Shown here: positions 2,239 through 22,334 of the stretch, piece by piece
How positions within the stretch are numbered: the first letter of the stretch is position 1
How the letters are laid out: each line of letters begins with the position of its first letter
Assembly: GCA_900234795.1 (NCBI GenBank)
Contig: LT962688.1
Coordinates: 4,620,001-4,652,000, forward strand
Source of the DNA: Methylorubrum extorquens
GTDB taxonomy: Bacteria > Pseudomonadota > Alphaproteobacteria > Rhizobiales > Beijerinckiaceae
Length of the DNA stretch: 32,000 bases
Reading direction: 5' to 3'
The notes under the pieces: generated by a model
What the model was told of the DNA's origin: nothing
The model's input: only the letters and a program-made list of their open reading frames with translations
Database searches by the model: none
Translations under genes and position numbers: made by a program

Positions 2239-2922
2239 TCAGTCGAGGTGGTCGCCGTAGCGCTGGACGTGGTCGGCGAGGCCGAGGCCGTGGTCGCGCA
2301 CGAGCCGCTCGGCGCGATCCGCGTCGCGAGCCTCCAAAGCCTCGATGATCTGCACATGCTCCTCGATCGATTTCGAGGCGCGGTCGCCCTGGCGGAGCGC
2401 CGTGTTGCGGATGCCGCGCACATGCATCAGCAGGTTGCTGGTCAGGTCCGTGATCACCGCGCTGTGGCCGAGCGCAATGATCTTCTGATGGAAACGGATA
2501 TTGGCTTCCGAGTACTCGTCGAGATGCTCGTAGGGCTGGCCGTCGAAGAACTCAGGGAAGGAGCGGCGCAGGCAAGCCAGATCCTCGTCCGAGGCGGCGG
2601 TGCAGGCGAGCCGCGCCGCCATGCTCTCCAGCGCCGCCCAGGCCTGGATCATGCCGACGATCTCGCGCTTCGTCTTCTTGACGACGAACACGCCGCGCCG
2701 GGGCTCGTTGCGGACGAAGCCTTCCTGCTCCAGCACCGTCAGCGCCTCGCGGATCGGCGTGCGGCTCACGCCGAGCGTCTGCGACAGGCCGCGCTCATCG
2801 AGCCGCACATCCCCGGTCTGGCCGTAGATGTCCATGTTGGTGATCGCGGATTTCAGCGCCTCGTAGGCCAGCGTCCGCAGGCTCGTCGCCGGAACGATCG
2901 GCTTGATCGAGAGATTTTCCAT
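2239..2922 (-). CDS. GntR-family transcriptional regulator, FadR/FCD subfamily
   Basis: Winged-helix signature LSQTLGVSRTPIREALTVLEQEGFV plus an all-helical FCD-type C-terminal domain. Start placed at ATG 2922 (MENLSIK...). The ORF-track start at 2991 would add 23 non-conserved residues. Divergent from frc. Confidence 0.85.
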   Translation of the reverse strand: MENLSIKPIVPATSLRTLAYEALKSAITNMDIYGQTGDVRLDERGLSQTLGVSRTPIREALTVLEQEGFVRNEPRRGVFVVKKTKREIVGMIQAWAALESMAARLACTAASDEDLACLRRSFPEFFDGQPYEHLDEYSEANIRFHQKIIALGHSAVITDLTSNLLMHVRGIRNTALRQGDRASKSIEEHVQIIEALEARDADRAERLVRDHGLGLADHVQRYGDHLD

Positions 2923-3110
2923 CACTTCGGATCGACCTTGATGCCGATGGGGTTGCGGGTCCGGAGTGGAAGCATCGAGCCGCGAGAGCATGGCGTCTCA
3001 TCCTTCGGAAGACAAGGCAGCCCGCACTCCGGCGTCCCGGCTCTCCCCGCGGAATCCGCACGAGAACATGCGGATCTTCGGTTTCCGGCCCGAAATGTTG
3101 ACCTCTGGCA

Positions 3111-3124
3111 TCTGGTATGCCAGA
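3111..3124. promoter_or_regulatory. Candidate GntR/FadR-type operator, site A (TCTGGTATGCCAGA), in the gntR-frc divergent intergenic region
   Basis: Near-palindrome TCTGG-N4-CCAGA. It overlaps a second perfect inverted repeat, GGCAT-N5-ATGCC (3107-3121). The 14-mer is identical to site B. Confidence 0.5.
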
Positions 3125-3326: not shown

Positions 3327-4616
3327 ATGAGCAAGGCACCGGGCAAGGCCCTCGAGGGCGTTCGCATCCTCGATTTCACCCATGTTCAATCGGGGCCGAC
3401 CTGCACGCAATTGCTCGCGTGGTTCGGGGCCGACGTCATCAAGGTCGAGCGGCCGGGTGCGGGCGACGCGACGCGTCAGCAGCTTCAGGACCTCCCCGGC
3501 GTGGACAGCCTCTATTTCACGATGCTGAACCACAACAAGCGTTCGATTACGCTCGACGGCAAGAACCCCAAGGGCAACGCGATCCTCTGGCGGCTCATCG
3601 CCGAGTGCGATGTGCTGGTCGAGAACTTCGCCCCCGGTGCGCTCGATCGCATGGGGCTGACCTGGGAGAAACTGCAGGCCGCCAATCCGGGCCTGATCCT
3701 GGCCTCGGTGAAGGGCTTCGGGCCCGGCCGCTACCAGGATTGCAAGGTCTACGAGAACGTCGCCCAATGCGTCGGCGGCGCGGCCTCCACCACCGGCTGG
3801 CGCGACGGCGTGCCGATGGTGTCGGGGGCGCAGATCGGCGATTCCGGCACCGGCCTGCATCTGGCGCTCGGCATCGTCACGGCCCTCTACCAGCGCACCC
3901 AGACCGGGCAGGGCCAGCGCGTCGATTGTGCCATGCAGGATGGGGTGCTCAACCTCTGCCGGGTGAAGCTGCGCGACCAGCAGCGCCTCGCCCACGGCCC
4001 GCTGATGGAATACAGCCAGTACGGCGAGGGCGTCCCCTTCGGCGAGGCGGTGCCGCGGGCCGGCAACGATTCCGGCGGGGGGCAGCCCGGCCGCATCCTG
4101 AAGTGCAAGGGCTGGGAGCAGGATCCCAACGCCTACATCTACTTCATCACGCAGGGCGCGGTTTGGGGACCGATCTGCGACATCATCGGCGAGCCGGACT
4201 GGAAGACCGATCCGGCCTACGCGACGCCGAAAGCCCGCTTGCCGCATCTCAACGAGATCTTCACGCGCATCGAAGCGTGGACGATGAAGCACGACAAACT
4301 CGAGGCGATGGAGATCCTCAACGCCTACGAGATCCCGTGTGGACCGATCCTGTCGATGCGGGAGATCGCCGAGGATCCGATGCTGCGGGCGAACGGCACG
4401 GTCGTCGAGGTCGAGCACCCGACCCGCGGCGCCTATCTAACGGTGGGCAACCCGATCAAGCTGTCGGCGAGCCCCACCGAGATCACCCGCGCGCCGCTGC
4501 TCGGCGAGCATACCGACGAGATCCTGCGCGAGGTGCTGGGCTGCACCGATACGGAAATCAGCGACATCCTCGGTTCGGGCGCGGTGGGCGGCGTCCACCG
4601 CATCGCCGCGGAGTAG
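3327..4616 (+). CDS. frc: Formyl-CoA:oxalate CoA-transferase, paralogue 1 (class III CoA-transferase)
   Basis: 429 aa. N-terminus [36 protein letters not shown], catalytic-Asp context IGDSGTG, Gly loop [35 protein letters not shown] at 3311-3320 precedes ATG 3327. The ORF-track start at 3117 is an upstream extension. Confidence 0.95.
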
Positions 4617-4669: not shown

Positions 4670-4683
4670 TCTGGTATGCCAGA
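4670..4683. promoter_or_regulatory. Candidate GntR/FadR-type operator, site B (TCTGGTATGCCAGA)
   Basis: Same 14-mer as site A. It also forms TGGTAT-N5-ATACCA (4672-4688). It lies 75-88 nt upstream of the small ORF start at 4758. Confidence 0.5.
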
Positions 4684-4757
4684 TACCAATGCAGACAGGC
4701 GAGACCCGATACGGCGGCGTTGCGCACCGTTCGGGCCGGCGACCGGAGGATACGGTG

Positions 4758-5350: not shown

Positions 5351-7207
5351 TCAGGAGTTCGCCCGGCCGACCTCCGGACCCCATGCGCCGAGGGTCGAGG
5401 TTTCGTCCGGGCAGAGAACCTCGTCGAGCGGCGCGATGCTCTCAGTCTGCTCCGTCAGGCCCGTCGCTGCGAGCGCCCGCACGGTCCCGGCGTCGCGGCA
5501 TGCGGCGGCGAGACCCGCCGGGTCGAGGCCGACGAGACGACCGCTCTCGAAGCGCGCGAAGACCCGCCCCGATGCCCGGTCGGCGAAGCGCACCACCGAG
5601 ACCTGCCGCAAGGCCTCCCGAAGAAAACGCGCCTCGGCCTCCGGCGCGTCGGCGACGCCGCGATAGACATCGGCCGCCGCGCGGGCGCTGATATCGATCC
5701 GCCGGTAGCGCTCGATCGCCAGCAGGGCTTTGGCATCGAGGATCGTCATCGCGTCGTTCGTGCCGAAGGCGATGGTAAGCGGGCGCGCGCCCTTGGGCAC
5801 GCTGTTGTCGAGGAATTCGTAAGTGACCGGCCGGTCCCGGCGCAGCGCCCAGGTGAAGAACAACCGCGGCATGCCGGTGAAGGCCTCGACATTGTGCGCG
5901 AGCAGATCCTCGACCGCCTTGTAGCGCCCGAACTCCTCGCCCCGCTTCCAGGCCCGCTCCACGGTTTCCTCGGGCGGCGTGATCATGAACTGCAGGTAGA
6001 CGCGCTGACCGAACCGCGTGAGGAGCTGGCCCGCACCGTCGCTGCCGGCCTCCGTCGAGAAGCTGTCGAAGCGGAAGCGATCGATCAGCAGGTGCGAGAG
6101 GCGGCCGCCGGCTGCCTTGCGGGTGATGTAGCGGTCGAGCTTGGCATCGATGATCTCCACCTCGTGCCCGGTCAGCGGCCCGGCATAGCGGCGCGCTTCG
6201 CCCAAGCTGTCATAGTCCAGCAGGAACTTGCGCCAGACGTCGGGTGTGATGACGGCGAAGTCCTGCCATTGCGCGCCGATCCGTCCGGCGAGGTCGCGCT
6301 GATACGGACGAATCGTGCTCTTGCCCGAGGCCGAAGCGCCCTTGACGGTCATCACCACCGGCTGCGCTTGCGGCGCGGGCCGGTGGTAGCCCTGCGCCGC
6401 GGCGACCGCCTCGATCCAGGGCGCGATCAGCGCGCCGATCCGGTCGCTGCCGCAGCGGTTGGTGACGAGGATGCTGGCAAGCCGCCGCAGCAGCGTGCGG
6501 TCGCGGATCAGCATGCCCTGGCGGGCGATGACGTGCCCGAACACCGTGCGCAGGGCCTCGCGGGCGGCGCTCTCCATGCTCTCGGGCTCGCTCGCGGACG
6601 CGCATCGTTCGTCGAGGCGGGCAAGGATGCGAGCCTGCCCGTCGCCGGCTGGAGAAGGGGAAGGGGAGGGCGGCTCGCGCGGGCCGAGGCGGCGGAGCCA
6701 TCCGGCCCAGCCGGAGATCGGTTCGGGCGGCGGCGCGGGCGCCTCGTCGAACAGGGCCGACAACTCGCATTCCAGCGCCGCATCGGCCTCGGCGCGGACC
6801 GCGTCCAGGGTCGCCGCGACCGCGTCGAGGCGGTGCATCACGCCCTCGCGCAGCAGCGTGCCGACGATGCGCCGGAAGTTCAGTCCGAGATCGGCATAGA
6901 CTTCGCCGACGGGGACCGAGATGTCGGCCATGACCCGGATCAGCACCTCGTGGACCGCGAGGCGCTCGGGCCGGAAGGGGGCGAGCTGCGTCGCGGGCAG
7001 GCCGCTGACATCGGACAGTTCGAGGATTTCGGAAAAGGGCAGGCGGACGTTCTCGGGCCGGAACACCGTCGCGAGCGGGCGCATCGCCCGCGGCAGGCCG
7101 GGTTCGAGGCCGGGATTCCAGGCGTGGAAGGCCGGCTCGTCCGCGCGGGCGGTGCCGGCGGCCTCGGCCGGAAACTTGCCAGAGAGGGGCGGCGCGGCGT
7201 CGCTCAT
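5351..7207 (-). CDS. Zeta-toxin-like / AAA_33-type P-loop kinase-domain protein with an uncharacterised ~290-aa N-terminal domain (618 aa)
   Basis: Walker A VKGASASGKST is followed by AVITPDVWRKFL and LLIDRFRF, which resemble zeta-toxin/UDP-GlcNAc-kinase-type P-loop kinases. Strong RBS GGGAGG 8 nt before ATG 7207. The ORF-track start at 7453 is an Arg/Ser-rich extension that overlaps the upstream gene. Confidence 0.7.
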   Translation of the reverse strand: MSDAAPPLSGKFPAEAAGTARADEPAFHAWNPGLEPGLPRAMRPLATVFRPENVRLPFSEILELSDVSGLPATQLAPFRPERLAVHEVLIRVMADISVPVGEVYADLGLNFRRIVGTLLREGVMHRLDAVAATLDAVRAEADAALECELSALFDEAPAPPPEPISGWAGWLRRLGPREPPSPSPSPAGDGQARILARLDERCASASEPESMESAAREALRTVFGHVIARQGMLIRDRTLLRRLASILVTNRCGSDRIGALIAPWIEAVAAAQGYHRPAPQAQPVVMTVKGASASGKSTIRPYQRDLAGRIGAQWQDFAVITPDVWRKFLLDYDSLGEARRYAGPLTGHEVEIIDAKLDRYITRKAAGGRLSHLLIDRFRFDSFSTEAGSDGAGQLLTRFGQRVYLQFMITPPEETVERAWKRGEEFGRYKAVEDLLAHNVEAFTGMPRLFFTWALRRDRPVTYEFLDNSVPKGARPLTIAFGTNDAMTILDAKALLAIERYRRIDISARAAADVYRGVADAPEAEARFLREALRQVSVVRFADRASGRVFARFESGRLVGLDPAGLAAACRDAGTVRALAATGLTEQTESIAPLDEVLCPDETSTLGAWGPEVGRANS

Positions 7208-7229
7208 CGCTCGCCCCTCCCGGTCTCGA

Positions 7230-7523
7230 TCAGGCGGCGGAGGCGTTCTCGATCGCCTCGAACCGGATCTGGTAGGCCTCGCCCCATAGGCTCGCCGCCC
7301 GCTCGTGCCACGCGGTGTCGAAGAACAGCTTGGCGCAGAACGAGCTGCGCCAGATGCACACCGCGATGATGCGCTCGTCCAGAACGCGGATGTGGCGGCT
7401 CTCCAGCCCGCCGGCGATGCCAAGACGGGGCAACATGTCGATGCTCGAAGCACCGAATTCGTTCTCGCCCGGGAAGACGATCGGGCATTCGATGACGGTC
7501 AGATGTTTCATCGGGTTTTCCAT
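7230..7523 (-). CDS. Hypothetical 97-aa protein, immediately upstream of and probably co-transcribed with the P-loop protein
   Basis: MENPMKHLTVIECPIVFPGENEF... with no recognisable domain. The stop lies 22 nt before the P-loop gene start. Alternative start at 7511 (MKH). Confidence 0.55.
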   Translation of the reverse strand: MENPMKHLTVIECPIVFPGENEFGASSIDMLPRLGIAGGLESRHIRVLDERIIAVCIWRSSFCAKLFFDTAWHERAASLWGEAYQIRFEAIENASAA

Positions 7524-8182: not shown

Positions 8183-8659
8183 TACCTATTGTCAATCCTG
8201 CGTTTTGAATTATGGTGCCGCCGTCTGGGCGGGATTGGCAAGATTGAGCCGCCAAAATCGATCCGCTTAGACGTCCTCCGTTCGGCCGGTGCGGCATGAT
8301 CCGAGGCAGGTCCTGCCCCCTGATCCAGGGCTGCACGAATGCTTCGCGCTCGTCCTCGTAGGGTGTCCCCGGGAACCGGCAGAGCTCATCCGCGGCGGTG
8401 CCTTTCGGCTTCGTCAGCGCATTCTGACGAGGTGGCAGTCGGTTCGTCGAAACTCGGCGCGTTGAAACGAGGGTCCTGATCCGCCGATCCGATGTGATCG
8501 AGTTGGATGCGACTTCAAGAATTCACCGGACGAACGCGATGGTCTGCTCACGCAGTCATTCCGCGTCAGCGAATATTTAAAGTCATATTCAAAAAAATAA
8601 TCGAGAAATTGAGCGACCAAAAAGCTCGGAAAAATCGAGCGTACACTGGAGATACGTCC

Positions 8660-9970
8660 ATGACCCAACCTACGACAACATACGTTCCACCACCGACGAG
8701 CCGATGGCTGCAATTGGTGTTCGGCATCGTCTGCATGTGCATGATCGCCAACATGCAGTACGGCTGGACGTTCTTCGTCAACCCGATGCAGGAACGGCAC
8801 GGCTGGGACCGCGCCGCGATCCAAGTCGCCTTCACCCTGTTCGTTCTCACCGAGACCTGGCTGGTGCCGATCGAGGGCTGGTTCGTCGACAAGTACGGCC
8901 CGCGGGCCGTGACGCTCGTCGGCGGCCTGTTGTGCGGGCTGGCCTGGGTGATCAACGCCTACGCCGACACGCTCTGGCTGCTCTATGTCGGGGCGGCCGT
9001 TGGCGGCACCGGTGCGGGCGCGGTCTACGGTACCTGCGTCGGCAACTCGCTGAAGTGGTTCCCCGACCGGCGCGGTCTGGCCGCCGGCCTCACCGCCATG
9101 GGCTTCGGCGCGGGCTCGGCACTCACCGTCGTGCCGATCCAGGCGGTGATCCACCATTACGGCTACGAGGCCGCCTTCTTCTGGTTCGGGATCGGCCAGG
9201 GCCTGATCGTGATGCTGATCGCCCTGTTCCTCGTCGCGCCGAAGAAGGGGCAGGTGCCCGAGATCGCCCGCGTCAGCCAGAGCCGGCGTGACTTCACGCC
9301 CGGCGAGATGGTGCGCACCCCGATCTTCTGGGTGATGTACGCGATGTTCGTGATGATGGCGGCCGGCGGCCTGATGGCCACCGCCCAGCTCGGCCCCATC
9401 GCCAAGGACTTCCATATCGCCGACGTGCCGGTGAGCCTGCTGGGGATCACCCTGCCGGCGCTGACCTTCGCCGCCACGATCGACCGGGTGCTCAACGGCG
9501 TGACGCGCCCGCTCTTCGGCTGGATCTCTGACCATATCGGCCGTGAGAACACGATGTTCCTCTCCTTCGGCATCGAGGGCGTGGGCATCTACCTGCTGAG
9601 CCAGTTCGGCCAGGACCCGATCCTGTTCGTGATCCTCACCGGTCTGGTGTTCTTCGCCTGGGGCGAGATCTACTCGCTGTTCCCGGCGACCTGCGGCGAC
9701 ACCTTCGGCTCGAAATACGCCGCCACCAATGCCGGCCTGCTCTACACGGCCAAGGGCACGGCGGCGCTGATCGTGCCCTATACCAGCATCCTCACGACGA
9801 TGACGGGGAGCTGGCACGCGGTGTTCCTGGCGGCCGCCGCGCTCAACATCCTCGCGGCGCTGATGGCGATCTTCGTCCTCAAGCCGATGCGGCAGGCCTA
9901 CACGCGGCAGGAGTCGACCGTCTTGGAGGCCAACTTGGAGGCCAAGCCGAAGACGGTCTCCGCCCACTGA
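8660..9970 (+). CDS. oxlT: MFS transporter, oxalate:formate antiporter (OFA) family, paralogue 1
   Basis: 436 aa, 12-TM MFS pattern. WLQLVFGIVCMCMIANMQYGWTFFVNP and GDTFGSKYAATNAGLLYTAKG. ATG 8660 with upstream GGAGA. About 60% identical by eye to the downstream paralogue. Confidence 0.9.
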   Translation: MTQPTTTYVPPPTSRWLQLVFGIVCMCMIANMQYGWTFFVNPMQERHGWDRAAIQVAFTLFVLTETWLVPIEGWFVDKYGPRAVTLVGGLLCGLAWVINAYADTLWLLYVGAAVGGTGAGAVYGTCVGNSLKWFPDRRGLAAGLTAMGFGAGSALTVVPIQAVIHHYGYEAAFFWFGIGQGLIVMLIALFLVAPKKGQVPEIARVSQSRRDFTPGEMVRTPIFWVMYAMFVMMAAGGLMATAQLGPIAKDFHIADVPVSLLGITLPALTFAATIDRVLNGVTRPLFGWISDHIGRENTMFLSFGIEGVGIYLLSQFGQDPILFVILTGLVFFAWGEIYSLFPATCGDTFGSKYAATNAGLLYTAKGTAALIVPYTSILTTMTGSWHAVFLAAAALNILAALMAIFVLKPMRQAYTRQESTVLEANLEAKPKTVSAH

Positions 9971-10235: not shown

Positions 10236-11561
10236 ATGGTACACCAACCGGCAGAGCAACACGTGCCACTCCAGGCGCCTCCGGATGCGCCTTCCGCCAA
10301 GTGGTGGCAACTCGCCTTCGGCGTGCTCTGCATGGCCATGATCGCCAACCTTCAGTACGGCTGGACGCTCTTCGTCGATCCGATCGATGCGCAGCACCAA
10401 TGGGGGCGCACGGCGATCCAGTTCGCCTTCACGATTTTCGTCGCCACCGAAACCTGGCTGGTTCCGATCGAGACGTGGTTCGTCGATCGCTACGGGCCGA
10501 GCATCGTGGTGGGCTTCGGCGGCGTCATGATCGCCTTGTCCTGGACCTTGAACGCCTACGCCGATTCGCTTTCCCTGCTCTACGCCGCGGCGGTGATCGG
10601 CGGGATCGGCGCTGGCTCGGTCTACGGCACCTGCGTCGGCAACGCCCTGAAGTGGTTCCCGGATCGCCGCGGCCTGGCGGCGGGCGCGACGGCGGCGGGC
10701 TTCGGCGCGGGAGCGGCGGCCACCGTGGTGCCGATCGCCCACATGATCGCCGCGAGCGGCTACCAGAAGGCCTTCCTCGTCTTCGGGCTCGGACAGGGAT
10801 TAGTCGTCGTCCTGCTGTCCTTCCTGCTGCGCAAGCCGTCGGTCGCCGTGCCGATCCGGCGCAAGAACCTGCGCCTGCCCCAGACCAAGATCGACCGCAG
10901 CCCGAAGGAAGCGGTGCGCACCCCCGTGTTCTGGACGATGTACGCGATGTTCGTGATGGTCGCCTCCGGCGGCCTGATGGCGGCGGCGCAGATCGCGCCG
11001 ATCGCCCACGACTTCAAGGTCGCCGACGTGACGATGAACCTGTTCGGCCTGCAGATGGCCGCACTCACCCTGGCGATCTCGCTCGACCGCATCTTCGACG
11101 GGTTCGGCCGGCCCTTCTTCGGCTGGGTGTCCGACAACATCGGCCGCGAGAACACGATGTTCATCGCCTTCGTGATCGCCGCGACGGCCTGCATTCTGCT
11201 CCTCGGCTACGGGCGTAATCCGCTCGTCTTCGTTCTGTGCACGGCGATGTATTTCGGCGTGTTCGGGGAGATCTACTCGCTGTTCCCGGCCACCTGCGGC
11301 GACACGTTCGGCTCGAAATACGCCGCCAGCAACGCCGGCCTCCTCTATACGGCCAAGGGGACGGCGGCCTTCCTCGTCCCCTTGGCCAGCGTGCTGTCGG
11401 CCTCCTACGGCTGGTCGGCGGTGTTCGGCCTCATCATCGGGCTGAACATCCTGGCCGCGGCGCTGGCGGTCTTCGTGCTGAAGCCGATGCGGCGGCGCTA
11501 CCTCGCGGCGGAGGCCGAGATCGCCGACGCGGCGGAGGCTCGCGCGGTGAAGCTGGCCTAA
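10236..11561 (+). CDS. oxlT: MFS transporter, oxalate:formate antiporter (OFA) family, paralogue 2
   Basis: 441 aa. WWQLAFGVLCMAMIANLQYGWTLFVDP and GDTFGSKYAASNAGLLYTAKG. RBS GGGAGAG precedes ATG 10236. Confidence 0.9.
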   Translation: MVHQPAEQHVPLQAPPDAPSAKWWQLAFGVLCMAMIANLQYGWTLFVDPIDAQHQWGRTAIQFAFTIFVATETWLVPIETWFVDRYGPSIVVGFGGVMIALSWTLNAYADSLSLLYAAAVIGGIGAGSVYGTCVGNALKWFPDRRGLAAGATAAGFGAGAAATVVPIAHMIAASGYQKAFLVFGLGQGLVVVLLSFLLRKPSVAVPIRRKNLRLPQTKIDRSPKEAVRTPVFWTMYAMFVMVASGGLMAAAQIAPIAHDFKVADVTMNLFGLQMAALTLAISLDRIFDGFGRPFFGWVSDNIGRENTMFIAFVIAATACILLLGYGRNPLVFVLCTAMYFGVFGEIYSLFPATCGDTFGSKYAASNAGLLYTAKGTAAFLVPLASVLSASYGWSAVFGLIIGLNILAAALAVFVLKPMRRRYLAAEAEIADAAEARAVKLA

Positions 11562-11581
11562 GGACCTCGAACGATGGTCCG

Positions 11582-11608
11582 CCGCCTCGACGGCTCGCGT
11601 CGAGGCGG
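11582..11608 (+). terminator. Terminator-like hairpin after oxlT paralogue 2
   Basis: CCGCCTCGACG, loop GCTCG, CGTCGAGGCGG. Perfect 11-bp stem, no T-tract. Confidence 0.4.
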
Positions 11609-11733
11609 CGGCCGCCCCAGCCGAATTCCCAGCCATTGAATTTCCCGCCCCACCCCGACGGCTGACGAAATGACGTCTGGCCGCCTGCCGGAACCGAGGC
11701 CGGGACTGACCCTCGTGCGGGAAGAAGTAAAGC

Positions 11734-11768
11734 CGCTGGTTGGTGTGCACAAATCGGCGCAACCAGCG
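11734..11768. promoter_or_regulatory. 9-bp inverted repeat CGCTGGTTG-N17-CAACCAGCG upstream of the oxidase gene
   Basis: Perfect arms at 11734-11742 and 11760-11768. The spacer contains the palindrome TGTGCACA. An AT-rich stretch follows, and the gene start (11860) is 92 nt downstream. Confidence 0.3.
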
Positions 11769-11859
11769 CGGCAGATTGCTGAGTTGCGATCTAAACCTAT
11801 GTTTCATTTCTAATCATTGTGAGAAGGAAGTCTCCCATCGTCATCGGGAGATTCGCAGG

Positions 11860-14205
11860 GTGTCGGACTTCACTTTTCACCGTGTCGGCCGGCTTGTGAC
11901 GGCCCTGGTCTTGATGGCGGTGCCCGGTTCGTCGTTCGCGCAGGTCGCCATCGGCAACGAACCGGACCCGCTCGTGGACAACCTCCGGGTCGGGCCCAAC
12001 GCCTCCGTGGTGGGAATGTGGTCGCCGGTGAAGGGCTGGCCGCTGGTCGGCATCCACGCGACGCTGATGCCCTCCGGCACCGTCATGACATACGGCACCG
12101 CCCTCGGCGGGGACGTGCATGACGGGCGCACCTTCGACCTGTGGGACCCGGCCCGGGGCCTCGACGATCCCGCCGCGCACTACACCCTGCCGAACGCGCA
12201 GTTCATCGACAGCTTCTGCAGCGCAGCCGCCTTCCTCAAGACGGGCGCGATGCTGATCTCCGGCGGCAGTGCCGTGAGCAACAATTACTCGTCGCGGGCC
12301 AGCACCCTGTTCGACCCGAAGACCGCGACGCCGACGGCCGCCGCCTCGCAGCTCGCGTATCAGCGCTGGTACGCCTCGATGCTGACCCTGACGGATGGCC
12401 GCATCCTCATTACGGGCGGCGGCGCTCCCTACGTCGTGAACGCCTTCAGGGGGCCTGCCACCGCGATCGCCCAGGGCGACGTCTCGATGACGCCGGAAAT
12501 CTACACGCCCGGCGCCGGCTGGAGCACGCTGCCCGGTGCGACCAGTCGCGACGCGTTCGGGCCCGACTTCAATCGGTGGTGGTATCCGCGGATGTGGGTT
12601 GCGCCGAACGGCCGGGTCTTCGGGATCTCGGCCGATAAGATGTGGTCGCTCGATCCGAACGGCCGCGGCGCCACCAGAACGCTCGGCAACTTCAAGACCG
12701 GCTTCAATGCCTTCCGGCGACCGAATACCGGCCCGACCTCGACGGCGGCGATGTTCGATGTCGGGCGGATCCTGCAGGTAGGCGGCAACGGGGCCTCGAA
12801 CGAGCATGCCACGCCCTCGAGCGCGGCCGCGACGGTGATCGACATCCGCGGCGCGGCACCCGTCCTCACCGAGGTGGCGCCGATGGCCAACCCGCGGCAA
12901 TGGGCGAACTCGACAATCCTCCCCGACGGCACGGTCGCCGTCACCGGCGGCACCCGCTTTGCCGACAATGCGGGCGCCGACGCCGTCTACCCGGCCGAGC
13001 TCTGGGATCCCCGCACCGGCCGCTGGAAAACGGGCGCGAGCGCAGCCACCTATCGCGGCTACCACTCGGCGGCGGTGCTCCTGCCCAACGCCACCGTTCT
13101 GGTGACCGGCGGGGGCGTTCCCGGACCGGTCACGAACTTCAACGCGGAGATCTACTATCCGCCCTACCTGTTCAGGGCGGACAACGGCCGGCAGGTGCTC
13201 GCGCCGCGTCCGCGTGTTGCCAGCGTCGATGCCAAGACCATCGACTACGGCGCGCGGCTGACGGTCTCGCTCGCGGGCGACGACAGCATTTCCAGGGTCG
13301 CCCTCGTCGCCCTCGGGACGGCGACGCACAGCTTCGACAGCAGCCAGCGCTACATCCCGGCAGCCTTCTCCCAGACCGGCCGGACGGTGTCGGTGGTGAT
13401 GCCCGGCAGCCCCAACATCGCTCCTCCGGGCTACTACATGGCCTTCCTCCTCGACGCGGCCGGAGTTCACTCGAACGGCATCATCGTCTCGATCGGCGGG
13501 ATGGCCGCGCCCGTCGCGGGGCCGGCCGGGAAGGGGCCGATCAAGGCGCAGATCGGCGAGCTTTCGAAGCGCGTCTCGCGCGGCCGCGATGGCACGACCG
13601 TTGTCGTGAACGCCCAGGCCGGGACGCTCTGGCGGCTGACGGGCGGCCAGACCGCCGCGCCGATCCCCGCTCCGAAGCCGATGACGGACGTGGCCGTCGT
13701 GACGGCCAACAGCATCTACGGTTTGGCCACCGATGGAAGCATCCTGCGCTACAACGGCAATGCGTGGAAGCAGGTCGGGCATGGCGGCCGGACGATCTCG
13801 GCCTCGGAGGACGGGACGGTCGCCATCACGAACATCGAGGACAACATCTACGTCAAGAACGCCGACGACGACGTGGAGGCCTGGAGCTACATGCCCGGCG
13901 CCGCGCTCCGGGTCGTGCCGATGAGCCGCCTTGCCTACTGGGCGATCGGGATGGACGGCAACGTCCACCGGATCGAGAAAAGCGGAAAATGGACGCAGGT
14001 CGGGGAGAGCGTCGGCGACCTCGCGACAGCCGGAGATGGCCGCATCGCCGTCACCAACAAGTTCACCAACGAGATCTGGACGAAGGCCGGCGACGACGTC
14101 ATCCGGAACTGGCAGCACAATCCGACGAAGGCCATCAGCTTGGCGGTCGCGAGAGGGGGAAGCCTCATCACGGTCGGCCCGGACGGTAACGTCTATCGGG
14201 AGTAG
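11860..14205 (+). CDS. Secreted copper-radical oxidase (glyoxal oxidase/galactose oxidase-like, kelch + DUF1929) fused to C-terminal tectonin-like beta-propeller repeats
   Basis: GTG 11860 is preceded by GGGAG. Signal peptide (M)SDFTFHRVGRLVTALVLMAVPGSSFAQV. Cu-radical oxidase motif set: FCSAAAF (Cys), RWYASM (Tyr), YRGYHSAAV (Tyr-His), THSFD (His). DUF1929 region AEIYYPPYLF...PPGYYMAFLL. C-terminal repeats of the type W-x-[IVL]-x-x-DG-x-[IV]-[YH]-R. Confidence 0.85.
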   Translation: MSDFTFHRVGRLVTALVLMAVPGSSFAQVAIGNEPDPLVDNLRVGPNASVVGMWSPVKGWPLVGIHATLMPSGTVMTYGTALGGDVHDGRTFDLWDPARGLDDPAAHYTLPNAQFIDSFCSAAAFLKTGAMLISGGSAVSNNYSSRASTLFDPKTATPTAAASQLAYQRWYASMLTLTDGRILITGGGAPYVVNAFRGPATAIAQGDVSMTPEIYTPGAGWSTLPGATSRDAFGPDFNRWWYPRMWVAPNGRVFGISADKMWSLDPNGRGATRTLGNFKTGFNAFRRPNTGPTSTAAMFDVGRILQVGGNGASNEHATPSSAAATVIDIRGAAPVLTEVAPMANPRQWANSTILPDGTVAVTGGTRFADNAGADAVYPAELWDPRTGRWKTGASAATYRGYHSAAVLLPNATVLVTGGGVPGPVTNFNAEIYYPPYLFRADNGRQVLAPRPRVASVDAKTIDYGARLTVSLAGDDSISRVALVALGTATHSFDSSQRYIPAAFSQTGRTVSVVMPGSPNIAPPGYYMAFLLDAAGVHSNGIIVSIGGMAAPVAGPAGKGPIKAQIGELSKRVSRGRDGTTVVVNAQAGTLWRLTGGQTAAPIPAPKPMTDVAVVTANSIYGLATDGSILRYNGNAWKQVGHGGRTISASEDGTVAITNIEDNIYVKNADDDVEAWSYMPGAALRVVPMSRLAYWAIGMDGNVHRIEKSGKWTQVGESVGDLATAGDGRIAVTNKFTNEIWTKAGDDVIRNWQHNPTKAISLAVARGGSLITVGPDGNVYRE

Positions 14206-14509
14206 CCCCGCCCTTCGCCGACTCAGCCTTCAACGCTTTCGCTGTATCACGCGGGCCGGTGTCTCGGCCCGCAGCCGCTCTGGCCAGCTGCTTACGACGA
14301 GGCTGGGCACGCTTCAGGGCCGTGCCGAGTGTGATCCGAAGCCGCTGACGACAAGTCCGCGGTCGGCCCCACCTTCGGGGACCATGGCCGCCGGACGCCG
14401 GGCGGTCCGTCTCCCGACGCGTCGTCTCTGACACCCTGGATCCTGCCACTTCTTTTTCGACCGCTCCCCCGACGCTTCCCGCGTGCGGATGCAACGCCAT
14501 GCGTTTCGT

Positions 14510-14538
14510 TTGACCGGCCTGTTGGTATTTGGTATGCC
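14510..14538 (+). promoter_or_regulatory. Candidate sigma-70-type promoter of oxc (TTGACC-N17-TATGCC)
   Basis: TTGACC at 14510-14515, a 17-nt spacer, then TATGCC at 14533-14538. The -10 hexamer lies inside operator site F. Confidence 0.3.
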
Positions 14539-14541
14539 AGC
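14528..14541. promoter_or_regulatory. Candidate operator, site F (TTTGGTATGCCAGC), preceded by a second GGTAT at 14524-14528
   Basis: Matches sites A and B at 12 of 14 positions. Located 140 nt upstream of the oxc ATG. Confidence 0.45.
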
Positions 14542-14680
14542 TGTGTCGCAACAAGGCCGGCCGCCCGAGACCGGTCCGCACGCTGCGCGCGGCGCAGCAG
14601 CAGGCGCGAAACGAGCCCGGCCCGACGCCATCGGGCCCCGCGCCGGACAAGAGCATCCGCACCACAAGGGAGAACGCCGC

Positions 14681-16432
14681 ATGACCGTCCAGGCCCAGAA
14701 CATCGACGCGATCACCGCGGGCGCGATGCCCCACGAGGAGCCGGAGCTGACGGATGGCTTCCACCTCGTCATCGACGCGCTCAAGCTCAACGGCATCGAG
14801 ACGATCTACAACGTGCCCGGCATCCCGATCACCGATCTCGGCCGTCTGGCCCAGGCCGAGGGTCTGCGGGTCATCTCCTTCCGCCACGAGCAGAACGCGG
14901 GCAACGCCGCTGCGATCGCCGGCTTCCTCACCAAGAAGCCGGGCATCTGCCTCACCGTCTCGGCGCCGGGCTTCCTCAACGGCCTGACCGCGCTGGCCAA
15001 CGCCACCACCAACTGCTTCCCGATGATCCTGATCTCCGGCTCCTCCGAGCGCGAGATCGTCGATCTGCAGCAGGGCGACTACGAGGAGATGGACCAGCTC
15101 GCCATCGCCAAGCCGCTGTGCAAGGCCGCCTTCCGCGTGCTGCACGCCGCCGATATCGGCATCGGCGTGGCCCGCGCGATCCGCGCTGCCGTCTCCGGCC
15201 GGCCCGGCGGCGTCTATCTCGATCTGCCCGCCAAGCTCTTTTCGCAAGTCATCGATGCCGATCTCGGCGCGCGCTCGCTGGTCAAGGTGATCGATGCGGC
15301 CCCGGCCCAGCTCCCGGCCCCGGCCGCCATCGCCCGGGCGCTCGACGTGCTGAAGTCGGCCGAGCGTCCGCTCATCATCCTCGGCAAGGGCGCGGCCTAC
15401 GCCCAGGCCGACGAGGCGGTGCGTGCGCTCGTCGAGGAAAGCGGCATCCCCTACGTGCCGATGAGCATGGCCAAGGGCCTCCTGCCCGACACCCACCCGC
15501 TCTCGGCCGGTGCGGCCCGCTCCACCGCGCTCAAGGATTCCGACGTGGTGCTGCTGGTGGGCGCCCGCCTCAACTGGCTGCTCTCCCACGGCAAGGGCAA
15601 GACCTGGGGCGAGCCCGGCTCGAAGCGCTTCATCCAGATCGACATCGAGCCGCGCGAGATGGACTCGAACGTCGAGATCGTCGCGCCGGTGGTGGGCGAT
15701 ATCGGCTCCTGCGTCGAGGCGCTGCTCGACGGCATCCGCAAGGACTGGAAGGGCGCGCCCTCCAACTGGCTGGAGACGCTGCGGGGCAAGCGCGAGGCCA
15801 ACATCGCCAAGATGGCCCCGAAGCTGATGAAGAACTCCTCGCCGATGTGCTTCCACTCGGCCCTCGGGGCGCTCCGGACGGTCATCAAGGAGCGGCCCGA
15901 CGCGATCCTCGTCAACGAGGGTGCCAACACCCTCGATCTCGCCCGCGGCATCATCGACATGTACCAGCCGCGCAAGCGCCTGGACGTCGGCACCTGGGGC
16001 GTGATGGGCATCGGCATGGGCTTCGCCGTCGCGGCCGCCGTCGAGACCGGCAAGCCGGTGCTGGCCGTCGAGGGCGACTCGGCCTTCGGCTTCTCCGGCA
16101 TGGAGGTGGAGACCATCTGCCGCTACGAGCTGCCGGTCTGCATCGTCATCTTCAACAACAACGGCATCTATCGCGGCACCGACACCGATCCGACCGGCCG
16201 CGATCCGGGCACCACCGTCTTCGTCAAGAACTCCCGCTACGACAAGATGATGGAGGCTTTCGGCGGCGTCGGCGTGAACGTCACTACGCCGGACGAGCTG
16301 AAGCGGGCCGTCGATGAGGCGATGAATTCCGGCAAGCCGACTCTGATCAATGCGGAGATCGACCCGGCCGCCGGCAGCGAGAGCGGCAACATCGGCAGCC
16401 TCAACCCGCAGAGCACCTTGAAGAAGAAGTGA
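14681..16432 (+). CDS. oxc: Oxalyl-CoA decarboxylase (ThDP-dependent)
   Basis: 583 aa. [28 protein letters not shown], ThDP motif [43 protein letters not shown] precedes ATG 14681. The ORF-track start at 14483 is an extension. Confidence 0.95.
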
Positions 16433-17421: not shown

Positions 17422-17442
17422 GCGGCGCGGGCTTGTCGATAC

Positions 17443-17469
17443 GGCATCCGCTTCGATCAAGCGGATGCC
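17443..17469 (+). terminator. Terminator-like hairpin after the esterase gene
   Basis: GGCATCCGCTT, loop CGATC, AAGCGGATGCC (perfect 11-bp stem). Weak T content downstream (CTTCAAAG). Confidence 0.45.
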
Positions 17470-17628
17470 CTTCAAAGACCCGGACAACGAAAAACCGGAC
17501 CGACGGAGTCGGCCCGGGAAAGTCATCGGAGGAGGAAGAAACCCGGGCGTCATGCCCGGTCATGCGCTCCCGGGGCGATGCCCCGTCCCGGGAGGATCAT
17601 GGCCGAAAGAGACTGGCCATCCTGTACG

Positions 17629-17652
17629 GGCAGCGCGGAGATCCGCGCTGCC
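17629..17652 (-). terminator. Terminator-like hairpin downstream of frc paralogue 2
   Basis: GGCAGCGCGGA-GA-TCCGCGCTGCC, 11-bp arms, 10 nt after the TAA stop (17662-17664). No U-tract. Confidence 0.4.
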
Positions 17653-17661
17653 GCTTCCCCT

Positions 17662-18912
17662 TTAGACCGCGCGCGACTCGTGCATCGCGGCGATCTGCTC
17701 GGGCGAGTAGCCGAGGCCCGCGAGGACCTCGTCGGTGTGCTCGCCCAGAAGCGGCGAAGCCTTGATGTCGACCTTCAGGTCCGAGAACTTGATCGGGGAA
17801 CCGACGGTCAGATACGAGCCGAGCTTGGGATGCGGCACCTCGACGATGGTGCCGCTGGCGCGCAGCGACGGATCGGCGGCGATTTCCTTCATCGACAGCA
17901 CCGGCGAGCACGGGATGTCGAACTTGCGCAGGATATCGACGGCCTCGAACTTGGTCTTGTCGGCCAGCCAATCCTCGATGATGGCGAAGATTTCGAAGAT
18001 CTTGTCCTGGCGGGCGCGGGGCGTGTTGTAGGCCGGATCGTCGATCCACTCCTCACGGCCGAGCGCCTTGCAGATCGGGGCCCAGGCGTGGCCCTGGATC
18101 GTGAAGTAGATGTAGGCGTTGGGGTCCGTCTGCCAGCCCTTGCACTTGAGCACCCAGCCCGGCTGGCCGCCGCCGCCCGCGTTGCCGCCGCGCGGCACCA
18201 CGTCCGTGAACTCGCCGTGCGGGTATTGCGGGTATTCCTCGAGGTAGCCGATGGCATCGAGACGCTGCTGGTCGCGCAGCTTCACGCGGCAGAGGTTGAT
18301 CACCGAATCCTGCATCGACACGGCGACCTTCTGGCCCTTGCCGGTCTTGGTCTTCTGGTGCAGCGCCGTGAGGATGCCGATGGCCAGATGCATGCCGGTG
18401 TTCGAGTCACCGAGCGCGGCGGCCGACACGGTGGGCGGGCCGTCCCAGAAGCCGGTGGTCGAGGCGGCACCGCCCGCGCACTGGGCCACGTTCTCGTAGA
18501 CCTTCAGATCTTCGTAGTGGTGCCCGTCGGAGAAGCCCTTCACCGAGGCGAGGATCATGCCCGGGTTGAGCTCCTGGATGCGGGCCCAGGTGAAGCCCAT
18601 GCGATCAAGCGCGCCGGGGCCGAAATTCTCGACCATCACGTCGGATTCTTGGATCAGCTTTTCCAGGACTTCCTTGCCCTGCGGGTTCTTGGTGTCCAGC
18701 GTCAGCGAACGCTTGTTGGAGTTGAGCATCGTGAAGTAGAGCGCATCCGCGTCCTCGACGTGGCGAAGCTGGTTGCGCGTCACGTCGCCCGAGCCCGGAC
18801 GCTCGACCTTGATCACGTCCGCCCCGAACCACGCGAGGAGCTGGGTGCAGGCGGGGCCCGCCTGGACGTGGGTGAAATCGATGATTCTGATCCCGTCGAG
18901 CGGCTGGGTCAT
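17662..18912 (-). CDS. frc: Formyl-CoA:oxalate CoA-transferase, paralogue 2
   Basis: 416 aa. [43 protein letters not shown], canonical Gly loop [36 protein letters not shown] precedes ATG 18912. About 65% identical by eye to paralogue 1. Confidence 0.95.
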
Positions 18913-19462: not shown

Positions 19463-19632
19463 CGGTTGCCCCCCTTCCGCCGGTTGCTAGCCCTGAGGCC
19501 GCGCTGTGAGCGGAGAGATGCGATGTCTGTCGAGGATGCCGCGTTCGGTCATGGCAGGCGTTGCCTCCTTGGCTTCCCGGGTCTCGGGCCTTCCGGATCG
19601 AGATCGCTCTTTCCGGTGGCTCGTCATTGGCA

Positions 19633-19648
19633 TCTGGTATACCAGATA
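19633..19648. promoter_or_regulatory. Candidate operator, site G: perfect 16-bp palindrome ATCTGGTATACCAGAT
   Basis: Perfect dyad containing TGGTATACCA, which fits the GntR/FadR-type T.GT..AC.A pattern. It lies in the divergent PAS(-frc)/osmC intergenic region, 81 nt before the osmC ATG and 171 nt before the PAS ATG. Confidence 0.5.
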
Positions 19649-19728
19649 CGAATGGCAGGTCAAGGCACAGTGCGGGGCTCGAACGAGATCGCGCAAAGGT
19701 GGGTTGATAGGGAGGCGAGGAGGCCACG

Positions 19729-20696: not shown

Positions 20697-21887
20697 TTAA
20701 TCCGCCGAGGCCGAGCGGCGCGGCGTGGCGTTGCGCCGGCTGGCGAAGACGCCGGGGGCCGTGCCGGGCACCACGACCAGGCGCCGGACCTCGCCGCTCA
20801 GATAGGCCTGGAGGAAGCGGGTGTAGTTCCGGAACACGACGCAGCCGTTCGAGGCGCCGCTCGGGCCCAGCATGTAGGTGTGGGCGAGGATGCCGTCGCG
20901 CCCGTGGATGGCGGCCGAGCCACCGACCGGATTGAGGCGGATCGCTCGCACCCCATGGAACAGCGCCTCGCGCTCCCGCAGGTCGTAGACCCCGGGCGGG
21001 GTGGCGCCGCGCATCCGGATATGAACGTGGTCCGGGTTGTCCTGGGCGACGCCGAGGCCGGAATGGGCTTCCAGCACCTCGCCGCTTGGCAGCGTCACGG
21101 TGGCGGCGCTGATGTCGTAGACGGCGACCCCCGGCTCAGAGACTGGGCCCGGCACGACGCGCCGCCGCGCGGCCGAATCGACCGCCCCGCTGTCGAGCCC
21201 GGCATAGGCCATCGCCTTGTCCGAGGACGGCGTGGGCGTCGAACCCGGCAGATCGAACATCTTCTCGAGGAAGTTGCGGTTATCGGTGACCGCGGCGCTG
21301 AACACGCTGCGGGTCGGCTCGGTGGAGGCGCGCGCCGTGGATGCGGTGGCGATCCGAGGCGTCGCCGCTCGGGCGGTCTGCGTGCGCGGCTCGTAGCGGA
21401 ATTCGTCGGGCCGCCGCACCGGCAACGGCACCGTGAGGGCGAGGCGGGCCGTCGGCGCGGCCGGGCGCGGTGTGATGGCGGGCGCGGCGTCGGCAGCCTG
21501 CTCCGCGGGGAGGGCGGCCAGGGTCGTGACCGGCTCCGATGGGGCAGGCTGCGACTTGGAAGGCTCCGCCACGGGTGGCGCCCGGAAGGCGGACACCTGC
21601 GCGGTCCGCGGGACGAAGCCGCCGGACGCGGTGTCGAGCACGGGGGTGGGGTCGAGCATCCAGGCCAGCGCGCCGGGCGCGGCCTGCACGGCCGCCGCCC
21701 CGTCGGCCTCGGCCGAGACCTGCGCGGTTTCCACGGGGGCGGGCGCGGCGCGATCCTGTGGTTGCAGGATCCCGGCGACCGCGAGACCCCCGAGGGCGGT
21801 CAGCGCGAGCGCCGCGACAGGCGGGCGGCGCCGACGGCGGATGACGGGCCGGGCGGAGCGACTCTGGACGAGCTCGGCGATGTCCAT
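20697..21887 (-). CDS. DUF2778 / Tlde1-like L,D-transpeptidase-fold protein with N-terminal membrane anchor and long Pro/Ala-rich linker
   Basis: C-terminal AIHGRDGILAHTYMLGPSGASNGCVVF (YkuD-like H...SxGC catalytic motif). N-terminal RRRRRPPVAALALTALGGLAVAGIL anchor. Start at ATG 21887. Confidence 0.7.
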   Translation of the reverse strand: MDIAELVQSRSARPVIRRRRRPPVAALALTALGGLAVAGILQPQDRAAPAPVETAQVSAEADGAAAVQAAPGALAWMLDPTPVLDTASGGFVPRTAQVSAFRAPPVAEPSKSQPAPSEPVTTLAALPAEQAADAAPAITPRPAAPTARLALTVPLPVRRPDEFRYEPRTQTARAATPRIATASTARASTEPTRSVFSAAVTDNRNFLEKMFDLPGSTPTPSSDKAMAYAGLDSGAVDSAARRRVVPGPVSEPGVAVYDISAATVTLPSGEVLEAHSGLGVAQDNPDHVHIRMRGATPPGVYDLREREALFHGVRAIRLNPVGGSAAIHGRDGILAHTYMLGPSGASNGCVVFRNYTRFLQAYLSGEVRRLVVVPGTAPGVFASRRNATPRRSASAD

Positions 21888-22334
21888 TGCGGGCGGTACT
21901 CGACAACGCGGATCCCACACGGCCTCCCGCCGTCATCCCCGGCTATCTGTGCCAGAATGACAAAACGAGATGGCTTCGCCGATTAGGGAAGGATCAACCT
22001 TAAGCCTTCGTCATTCAACGGGATCTTGGTTAATCTTGCCTAAAGCTCGGTCACGTCCTTCGAAAAACGTTCGATGCGGTTTCTCGACGGCTGCGCCGTG
22101 CTACGAGGCGGTAGCCTCTACCAACCGCCGCGGCGCAGTGCGCGCTCGATCACGGGATCGACCGGGCGATCGCCATCGTCTCGCGTTCCCGCCTTCAGGC
22201 CGATGCAGGAAGTGCAGCCGCCATGGGGCTTCTCGCCGAGCCCTTGTGCTCTACGGGCCACAGGTTGTGTGATGTTGTTACATTTCATTGGCCGGTCTGT
22301 TGACCCTGCGCCGCATCGCAGCGAAGTTGCTGCG

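Follow-up and report, generated by a model that had tools for sequence, protein, structure and literature searches.

Copper-radical oxidases (CROs) fused to carbohydrate-binding modules are a well-known theme, represented by CBM32 in galactose oxidase and by WSC in the glyoxal oxidases of fungi, where some members of subfamily AA5_1 carry such carbohydrate-binding WSC modules. For bacteria, a review on CROs names only enzymes of Streptomyces and Stigmatella as examples, and it describes GlxA, the best-studied bacterial relative of the protein considered here, as needed for glycan deposition (PMC11611005). The present analysis concerns a gene of Methylorubrum extorquens, located in a stretch of 32,000 nucleotides (assembly GCA_900234795.1, contig LT962688.1, positions 4,620,001 to 4,652,000; this whole stretch is referred to as the window), which encodes a predicted CRO fused to a C-terminal tectonin β-propeller and lies between the genes of an oxalate/formate antiporter (oxlT) and oxalyl-CoA decarboxylase (oxc). 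A preliminary description, made from the sequence of the window, had connected the enzyme with the surrounding oxalate genes; the comparisons reported below indicate that the gene was inserted between them in one lineage and does not belong to the conserved set of oxalate-catabolic genes.

Searches with phmmer against PDB sequences indicated the relatedness of the protein to the Colletotrichum copper oxidase 6RYW (E 1.4e-39), the bacterial galactose oxidase 9G43 (E 1.4e-36), galactose oxidase 1GOF (E 3.2e-33), Streptomyces GlxA (4UNM, E 9.6e-24) and the Fusarium glyoxal/aldehyde oxidase 9N3U (FgrAldOx, E 8.9e-17); the AA5_2 enzymes in the PDB ranged from E 1.4e-39 to 3.4e-30, and the closest characterised relatives thus belong to AA5_2, not to AA5_1. 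The AlphaFold 2 model, based on a family alignment of 52 sequences, was predicted with a mean predicted local distance difference test (pLDDT) score of 90.2 and a predicted template modelling (pTM) score of 0.88, and its top Foldseek matches in the PDB were galactose oxidase 1GOF (E 1e-37), CgrAlcOx 5C92 (TMt 0.86), GlxA and FgrAldOx. All three Pfam profiles that the preliminary description had called for, Glyoxal_oxid_N, DUF1929 and Tectonin, exceeded their cut-offs; the Glyoxal_oxid_N match (47 bits, cut-off 37.5) is partial, its best stretch covering profile positions 65-138 of 243, and the DUF1929 domain follows the catalytic domain, as had been proposed (Table 1).

The four active-site motifs quoted earlier are all present. 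The motifs FC120S, RW170Y171AS, YRGY401H402S and TH490SF align to DMFC, RGYQ, RNYHS and THS of the Colletotrichum copper oxidase (6RYV/6RYW/6RYX), which we take, from what is known of galactose oxidase, to be the positions of the cofactor Cys, the cofactor Tyr, the Tyr-His pair and the remaining His, respectively. Residues C120, Y171, Y401, H402 and H490 are invariant in the alignment of 52 sequences, so that no copper ligand is missing, and position 170 is occupied by Trp in 32 homologues and by Tyr in the other 20. These alignments and the confident model support the original reading of the motifs, and the identification of the protein as a CRO with a complete ligand set, including the residues of the predicted Cys-Tyr cofactor and the copper ligands, is confirmed at the sequence level. 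Consecutive Trp and Tyr residues have been reported in the aldehyde oxidase FgrAldOx (W509-Y510); W288 of GlxA fills the same second-shell position, and in galactose oxidase the stacking Trp290 is supplied by another loop (PMC13094651). The highest overall similarity to AA5_2, combined with an aldehyde-oxidase-like second shell, makes the enzyme a hybrid. One point supports the designation "glyoxal-oxidase-type", the Trp170 that stands just before Tyr171, as in FgrAldOx; the sequence as a whole is closer to alcohol and galactose oxidases.

The likeness to the described systems is in each case incomplete. AA5_2 enzymes (1GOF, Colletotrichum AlcOx 5C92 and AAO 6RYV) and the Pseudarthrobacter siccitolerans galactose oxidase (9G43/9G8H) are the best matches, with 23-28% identity, and resemble the M. 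extorquens protein in their Cys, Tyr, Tyr-His and His residues, in having a kelch propeller with an E-set domain on its C-terminal side, and in the fusion of the core to an accessory module of carbohydrate- or protein-binding type; unlike them, the M. extorquens oxidase has no N-terminal CBM32 or PAN domain, its accessory module is a C-terminal tectonin, and the cofactor Tyr is preceded by Trp (RWY) and not by Gly (RGY). With the AA5_1 enzymes (Phanerochaete chrysosporium GLOX and FgrAldOx) it has in common the presence of Glyoxal_oxid_N and DUF1929, the lack of an N-terminal CBM32 and, in the case of FgrAldOx, the Trp before the cofactor Tyr, but it resembles them far less in sequence, matches the Glyoxal_oxid_N profile in part, and is a bacterial protein that carries the tectonin module. 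GlxA (SCO2837) is also a bacterial CRO with a Trp-Tyr second shell; the family examined here is linked to Sco-type copper chaperones, and the role of GlxA concerns a glycan. At the same time, the M. extorquens protein is not a GlxA orthologue, since it scores 140.7 bits against the NCBIfam equivalog NF052501, the cut-off of which is 800; moreover, the phmmer alignment covers residues 241-539 only, the folds differ by a root-mean-square deviation (rmsd) of 5.5-6.5 Å, no cslA-type gene neighbours the oxidase in the window, and the predicted signal peptide is of a cleavable type and not a membrane anchor.

The C-terminal module was clearly recognised as a tectonin. The Pfam profile PF19193 matched residues 570-744 with 35.3 bits (cut-off 30), and phmmer found Tectonin 2 (5FSB) at the sequence level (E 5.8e-7). 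The domain modelled alone reached a pLDDT of 94.7 and contained about 23 strands arranged in six blades; the top PDB matches of this model were the structures of Laccaria bicolor tectonin 2 (5FSB/5FSC; TM score 0.83-0.87, rmsd 2.4-2.7 Å, 22% identity), and carp fishelectin 4RUQ (TM score ~0.8) was also among them. Self-alignment scoring of the repeats revealed no offset over the threshold, and the number of blades is therefore given by the structural model. The tectonin assignment is sound, and the C-terminal propeller that the preliminary description had proposed to check by structure prediction was confirmed; of the "five to six" repeats resembling tectonin or tachylectin, the tectonin propeller is retained and, according to the model, the blades are six. 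A six-bladed propeller of about 225 amino acids is also characteristic of the tectonin lectins (Laccaria Tectonin 2, fishelectin, and the Limulus and Physarum tectonins), but those proteins stand alone, while here the propeller is the C-terminal module of an enzyme. Structures 5FSB and 5FSC are complexes of L. bicolor tectonin 2 with O-methylated fucose or mannose derivatives and, by analogy, the domain of the M. extorquens oxidase may bind sugar.

The protein ACS38886.1 of M. extorquens AM1, named "putative galactose oxidase", is 99% identical to the oxidase; the gene thus already has a galactose-oxidase-like annotation, and the oxalate system proposed for it is not supported by the comparisons described below. 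The signal peptide previously noticed on the 781-amino acid product has the n-, h- and c-region layout of Sec signals and coincides with residues 1-25, the sole disordered or low-confidence part of the AlphaFold model (pLDDT <50). Older GenBank annotations of the gene begin 18 codons later, at Met19 (position 11914), giving 763 amino acids; that start falls within the hydrophobic core of the signal peptide, and the 781-amino acid GTG start, which has a ribosome-binding site and yields a complete signal peptide, is used in newer annotations. The spacer upstream of the gene (11562-11859) has a GC content of 61%, compared with 68% for the window, and a consensus scan of the plus strand revealed neither a sigma-70-like promoter nor a canonical intrinsic terminator. 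The 90%-identity protein cluster headed by the oxidase also includes many oxalyl-CoA decarboxylases of Methylorubrum and Methylobacterium (583-588 amino acids), with which it has no sequence relationship; the grouping is probably artificial, created by a gene call that fuses or reads through the two neighbouring genes.

Comparison with related genomes indicated that the gene was inserted at its present site. Homology detected by blastn to M. populi ends at position 11563, two bases past the oxlT stop codon, and resumes at 14460; the break in M. rhodesianum is at 11563 as well, and the homology resumes at 14503. In these two species, the cluster of the window is matched gene for gene, the oxidase excepted, in the order cobW, gntR, frc, an open reading frame (ORF) of ~610 codons, CBS, oxlT, oxlT and oxc, followed by genes of a 239-amino acid hydrolase, frc2, PAS, OsmC, SnoaL, Tlde1, a TonB receptor and an acyltransferase; M. 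zatmanii has the same cluster core, from CBS through Tlde1. In five related species (M. populi, M. rhodesianum, M. zatmanii, Methylobacterium sp. Leaf456 and M. komagatae), oxlT is directly followed by oxc, the spacer between them being 175-630 bp. The interval between the points where homology breaks and resumes is therefore an insertion in the lineage of M. extorquens and Methylobacterium sp. Leaf123, where the oxidase gene entered the oxlT-oxc spacer, the direct oxlT-oxc arrangement being ancestral. Leaf123 has an oxidase 90% identical in amino acid sequence in a fully syntenic locus. All nine M. extorquens-type genomes inspected contain the gene at this site, one of them as a split copy (GCA_029504475.1, locus L084, 3183-5530), in which ORFs of 688 and 94 amino acids break the tectonin domain; either a frameshift mutation or a sequencing error may account for the split. 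No notable direct or inverted repeats of the kind left by mobile elements flank the insertion, and the composition of the gene matches the host, its GC content at third codon positions (0.90) being the same as that of its neighbours. The ratio of nonsynonymous to synonymous substitution rates (dN/dS) relative to the Leaf123 orthologue is 0.28 overall, 0.22 for the catalytic part and 0.33 for the tectonin part; together with the retention of the gene in the nine M. extorquens-type genomes, this argues that the gene is functional.

A wider scan, in which the orthologue alignment was compared with one genome per species in GTDB and all the window neighbours were then searched with tblastn against the loci obtained, gave 69 loci. 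Genes oxc, frc and oxlT were found near the oxidase in two of them, Leaf123 and L003, and, aside from L003, orthologues and paralogues beyond the M. extorquens/Leaf123 clade have none of these three genes at a distance of 10 kb or less. Orthologues from Aureimonas (63% identity), Prosthecomicrobium (55%), Sphingobium (46%) and the alphaproteobacterial genome GCA_000379125.1 (60%) stand in unrelated contexts. The preliminary description had interpreted the position of the gene as a reflection of an oxalate-catabolic function and had itself made this dependent on co-occurrence with oxc and frc in other genomes; the adjacency is restricted to M. extorquens-type genomes and Leaf123, the five related species listed above do not have the gene, and this interpretation is not upheld. 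The oxidase gene is outside the conserved part of the oxalate-catabolic system and, the insertion being confined to the M. extorquens lineage, its position is weak evidence for an oxalate role.

Locus L003 (JBASCW010000166.1, from a metagenome-assembled genome (MAG) labelled "Burkholderiales"), where genes for a CRO, oxc and frc are found together, was considered as an independent second case of the adjacency and rejected. The contig matches window positions 11583-16408, and a sliding-identity scan showed 94-100% identity up to ~15180, inside oxc, and 62-81% after that point; owing to this drop, the contig looks like an assembly chimera or a recombinant of M. extorquens-like DNA. The sequence runs on into a different frc and, for its first half, the assignment to Burkholderiales is questionable.

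Family-wide patterns point in another direction. The 120 best homologues have a constant catalytic core and differ in their C-terminal module, which may be tectonin (PF19193, ~50 proteins), AbfB (PF05270, ~32), LamG (PF13385, ~33) and sometimes ricin or a combination; all these interchangeable modules are of carbohydrate-binding type, which argues for glycan targeting over a C2-acid pathway. Clustering of the neighbours revealed one recurrent partner, a gene of ~205 codons that immediately precedes the oxidase gene at 22 of 33 loci and was identified with Pfam as that of a Sco1/SenC copper chaperone (e.g., L005 9238-9858, L011 8992-9612 and L006 9217-9852, with 19 further loci). The pairing was seen in Sphingobium, in other Methylobacterium paralogues and in Polyangiaceae, and the orthologue group of the window is without it; taken with the module swapping, it suggests a copper enzyme targeted to carbohydrates and not a step of a C2-acid pathway. 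The family is found in Methylobacterium, Methylorubrum, Sphingomonas, Sphingobium, Aureimonas, Lichenibacterium, "Leaf" isolates and Polyangiaceae, typical leaf and soil bacteria. The fusion had been thought undescribed, and in the library searched there was indeed no paper containing both "copper radical oxidase" and "tectonin"; in sequence databases, however, the architecture is common, as the ~50 tectonin-bearing homologues mentioned above demonstrate.

The regulatory sequences of the window also deserve consideration. The operator-like motif downstream of the oxidase gene lies in the conserved oxc promoter region and has related sites at 3105-3123, 4671-4689 and 19627-19652, with the general form TTGGYATCTGGTATRCCAG and the palindromic core CTGGTATRCCAG. 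A search for the core CTGGYATRCCAG gave four occurrences (3112, 4671, 14529 and 19634), as against 0.14 expected by chance. The sites are located near frc, oxc and the PAS-frc2 unit, close by the gene of a GntR/FCD regulator, and M. populi and M. rhodesianum have also conserved the one that precedes oxc; this motif is probably where that regulator binds to control the oxalate regulon. The CTGGYATRCCAG core was not found upstream of the oxidase (11562-11859), which is a weak test, since both oxlT genes are also without it. The hairpin just past the oxlT stop, which has no U-tract, is possibly a terminator or transcript end; the hairpin past the oxidase stop does not stand out from shuffled sequence (z 0.13).

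Table 1. Features of the oxidase gene and its surroundings (positions in the window)
Feature	Position	Strand	Evidence
GntR/FCD regulator gene	2239-2991	-	
Formyl-CoA transferase frc	3327-4616	+	NCBIfam equivalog
First tandem oxalate/formate antiporter	8507-9970		NCBIfam TIGR04259, 716 bits (cut-off 335)
Second of two tandem oxalate/formate antiporters OxlT, upstream neighbour	10236..11561	+	NCBIfam equivalog TIGR04259, 680 bits (cut-off 335)
2.9-kb block of M. extorquens and Leaf123 that M. populi and M. rhodesianum lack	11564..14459		blastn, alignments, gene maps
Perfect 14-bp hairpin just past oxlT stop	11579..11611	+	-40.5 kcal/mol, z -3.2; no U-tract
Ribosome-binding site GGGAG	11846..11850	+	9 nt 5' of GTG; read from sequence
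Oxidase gene, 781-aa copper-radical oxidase-tectonin fusion	11860..14205	+	GTG start, TAG stop; intact 781-codon ORF
Predicted Sec-type signal peptide, residues 1-27, VSDFTFHRVGRLVTALVLMAVPGSSFA|QV, putative cleavage SFA|QV	11860..11940	+	n/h/c layout; cleavage site inferred from sequence features
Catalytic seven-bladed kelch-type propeller, residues ~45-445	11992..13194	+	Foldseek, phmmer, Pfam Glyoxal_oxid_N and Kelch_6
Cys120 codon, Cys of Cys-Tyr cofactor	12217..12219	+	Aligned to Cys of DMFC in 6RYW and 9G43; 52/52 homologues
Trp170-Tyr171 codons, second-shell aromatic just before cofactor Tyr	12367..12372	+	Y171 aligned to Tyr of RGY in 6RYW and 9G43; 52/52 homologues
Tyr401-His402 codons, axial Tyr and equatorial His copper ligands	13060..13065	+	Aligned to YH of RNYHS in 6RYW; 52/52
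E-set/DUF1929 (GO-like_E_set, PF09118), residues 450-545	13207..13494	+	Pfam 79.3 bits, E 2.8e-22
His490 codon, second equatorial His ligand	13327..13329	+	Aligned to His of THS in 6RYW; 52/52
Gly/Pro/Ala-rich linker GGMAAPVAGPAGKGP, residues 546-560	13495..13539	+	Sequence; pLDDT falls to 76 here
Six-bladed tectonin β-propeller, residues ~561-781	13540..14202	+	Pfam, phmmer, domain model
Operator-like motif TTGGTATTTGGTATGCCAG, conserved oxc promoter region, downstream of oxidase gene	14522..14540	+	Alignments, motif scan
Oxalyl-CoA decarboxylase Oxc, downstream neighbour	14681..16432	+	NCBIfam equivalog NF006721, 1037 bits (cut-off 557)
Second formyl-CoA transferase frc2	17662-18912	-	NCBIfam equivalog

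The statement that the oxidase gene lies between oxlT and oxc is literally true, both neighbours exceeding their NCBIfam equivalog cut-offs (Table 1). The tandem antiporters are 57-60% identical to each other in a cross-comparison with Leaf123; their duplication is common to all the Methylorubrum genomes seen, and M. komagatae has one copy, adjoining oxc. A long ORF of up to 700 amino acids (5351-7453, minus strand), located between frc and the CBS gene, showed a sub-threshold Zeta_toxin/P-loop match only; it is conserved, with 93% amino acid identity in Leaf123 and counterparts of 603-622 amino acids in M. populi, M. rhodesianum, M. zatmanii and Leaf456. The oxalate cluster contains a second presence/absence polymorphism, a gene of an HPP-CBS membrane protein (390-409 amino acids, minus strand) located between the 239-amino acid hydrolase gene and frc2 in M. 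populi, M. zatmanii and Leaf456 (e.g., locus L072, site 12799-14013) and absent from the window (~17422-17661), from other M. extorquens genomes and from M. rhodesianum. A protein of ~400 amino acids (20697-21920, minus strand) has a C-terminal Tlde1 domain with an L,D-transpeptidase-like effector fold; its gene adjoins that of the TonB-dependent receptor and has the same position in all Methylorubrum clusters inspected.

Considering these results, we favour, with moderate confidence, the reading that the gene encodes a lectin-targeted, Sec-exported CRO which is independent of the oxalate system and acts on a glycan-associated class of substrates. The oxidase would be exported by Sec to the periplasm, where copper would be loaded, and perhaps to the surface; the Cys120-Tyr171 radical cofactor would form beside the mononuclear Cu, and a primary alcohol or hydrated aldehyde would be oxidised, with O2 reduced to H2O2, which would be released. 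The tectonin propeller, on its flexible linker, would hold the oxidase at a glycan-bearing surface, possibly the cell's own lipopolysaccharide (LPS) or exopolysaccharide, or plant or microbial glycans, and the tethered enzyme would act on substrates at or near that surface. Its own ribosome-binding site, the AT-richer upstream region and the hairpin may set the oxidase gene apart from oxlT. Several points weigh against this reading. The W170-Y171 pair resembles that of aldehyde-oxidising CROs, which keeps glyoxal, glycolaldehyde or glyoxylate among the possible substrates; the gene is kept at its site throughout M. extorquens, and read-through from oxlT, given that the hairpin has no U-tract, or local co-regulation may be possible; a Sec signal in a Gram-negative cell guarantees the periplasm only, surface exposure being assumed; and a literature search combining M. 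extorquens, oxalate and galactose oxidase found no paper on this oxidase.

The model of the preliminary description, in which the enzyme, in the periplasm or outside the cell, oxidises glyoxal or glyoxylate and so supplies OxlT, Oxc and Frc with oxalate or another C2 acid, the gene having been recruited for that purpose, appears improbable. Fungal glyoxal oxidase can convert glyoxylate to oxalate, and the model agrees with the site of the gene, which all nine M. extorquens-type genomes keep between genuine oxlT and oxc genes, with the Glyoxal_oxid_N score over the Pfam threshold, and with the correspondence of W170-Y171 to FgrAldOx and W288 of GlxA (PMC13094651). It is contradicted by the occurrence of the same cluster without the gene in M. 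populi, M. rhodesianum and M. zatmanii and of directly adjoining oxlT and oxc in Leaf456 and M. komagatae; by the 69 loci, of which only Leaf123 and the chimeric MAG contig are near oxc, frc or oxlT; by the similarity to alcohol and galactose oxidases (E 1e-39), closer than that to the glyoxal oxidase 9N3U (E 9e-17); by the lectin module and its AbfB, LamG and ricin alternatives, which are ill-suited to a small-molecule C2 pathway; by the split copy in one strain; and, as far as this weak test goes, by the absence upstream of the oxidase of CTGGTATRCCAG, the operator that the promoters of frc, oxc and PAS-frc2 have in common. Co-option after the insertion is very unlikely: the lectin-tethered oxidase would turn plant-derived glycolaldehyde, glyoxal or glyoxylate into oxalate or glyoxylate at the cell or leaf surface, the antiporter would import the product, and H2O2 would be a by-product; if true, the lineage would have a feeder step of its own, targeted to the surface, for a carbon source that is central in the phyllosphere.

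A role similar to that of GlxA, where the tectonin would bind the cell's own LPS or exopolysaccharide and the oxidase would modify the polymer or aid its deposition, with an effect on biofilm or surface, is unlikely. GlxA depends on a Sco chaperone, Sco genes adjoin 22 of 33 family members, and the Trp-Tyr arrangement of the active site is shared; tectonin-family lectins classically bind LPS and O-methylated bacterial glycans. Further points in favour are the need for GlxA in glycan deposition, as described in the review (PMC11611005), and the binding of LPS by a human tectonin protein, as reported in another paper (PMC2707011); the score of 140.7 bits against the GlxA equivalog cut-off of 800, the lack of a cslA-like glycosyltransferase among the window neighbours and a cleavable signal peptide in place of a membrane anchor speak against it. 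Low weight is given to two other explanations. The oxidase might be a lectin-guided source of H2O2, docked by its tectonin on foreign O-methylated or LPS-type glycans or on plant cell-wall sugars and serving antagonism, signalling or the feeding of peroxidases and lytic polysaccharide monooxygenases (LPMOs). The closest folds of the module, defence lectins binding O-methylated fucose or mannose (5FSB/5FSC) and fishelectin, are compatible with this, as are the concentration of the family in plant-surface and soil genera and the paired fungal CRO-peroxidase systems known on plant surfaces (PMC9770985); since no peroxidase, LPMO or secretion-system gene adjoins the oxidase gene and export past the periplasm is an assumption, such a function seems quite unlikely. 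Finally, a decaying passenger gene without current function, carried in the spacer, would fit the restriction to one lineage, the faster evolution in comparison with the neighbours (90% amino acid identity to Leaf123, vs. 96-97% for OxlT and Oxc) and the split copy, but it is highly improbable for a gene that has an intact frame of 781 codons, invariant catalytic residues, a confident model and a dN/dS of 0.28 (0.22 in the catalytic domain), and that is unsplit in eight of the nine strains inspected.

If the reading of a lectin-targeted oxidase independent of the oxalate system holds, nothing would change in the understanding of oxalate metabolism. The locus is a caution against guilt by association, as a gene standing between two genes of a pathway can be a recent insertion. 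The oxidase represents a large uncharacterised clade of bacterial CROs, enriched in leaf- and soil-dwelling Alphaproteobacteria and in myxobacteria, which combines a Trp-Tyr second shell, similarity to alcohol and galactose oxidases, interchangeable lectin-type modules and frequent pairing with Sco. CROs are used for the selective oxidation of alcohols and aldehydes, and the clade may therefore be of relevance for biocatalysis; it is also of interest for the way in which bacteria of the phyllosphere deal with H2O2 and with glycans at surfaces.

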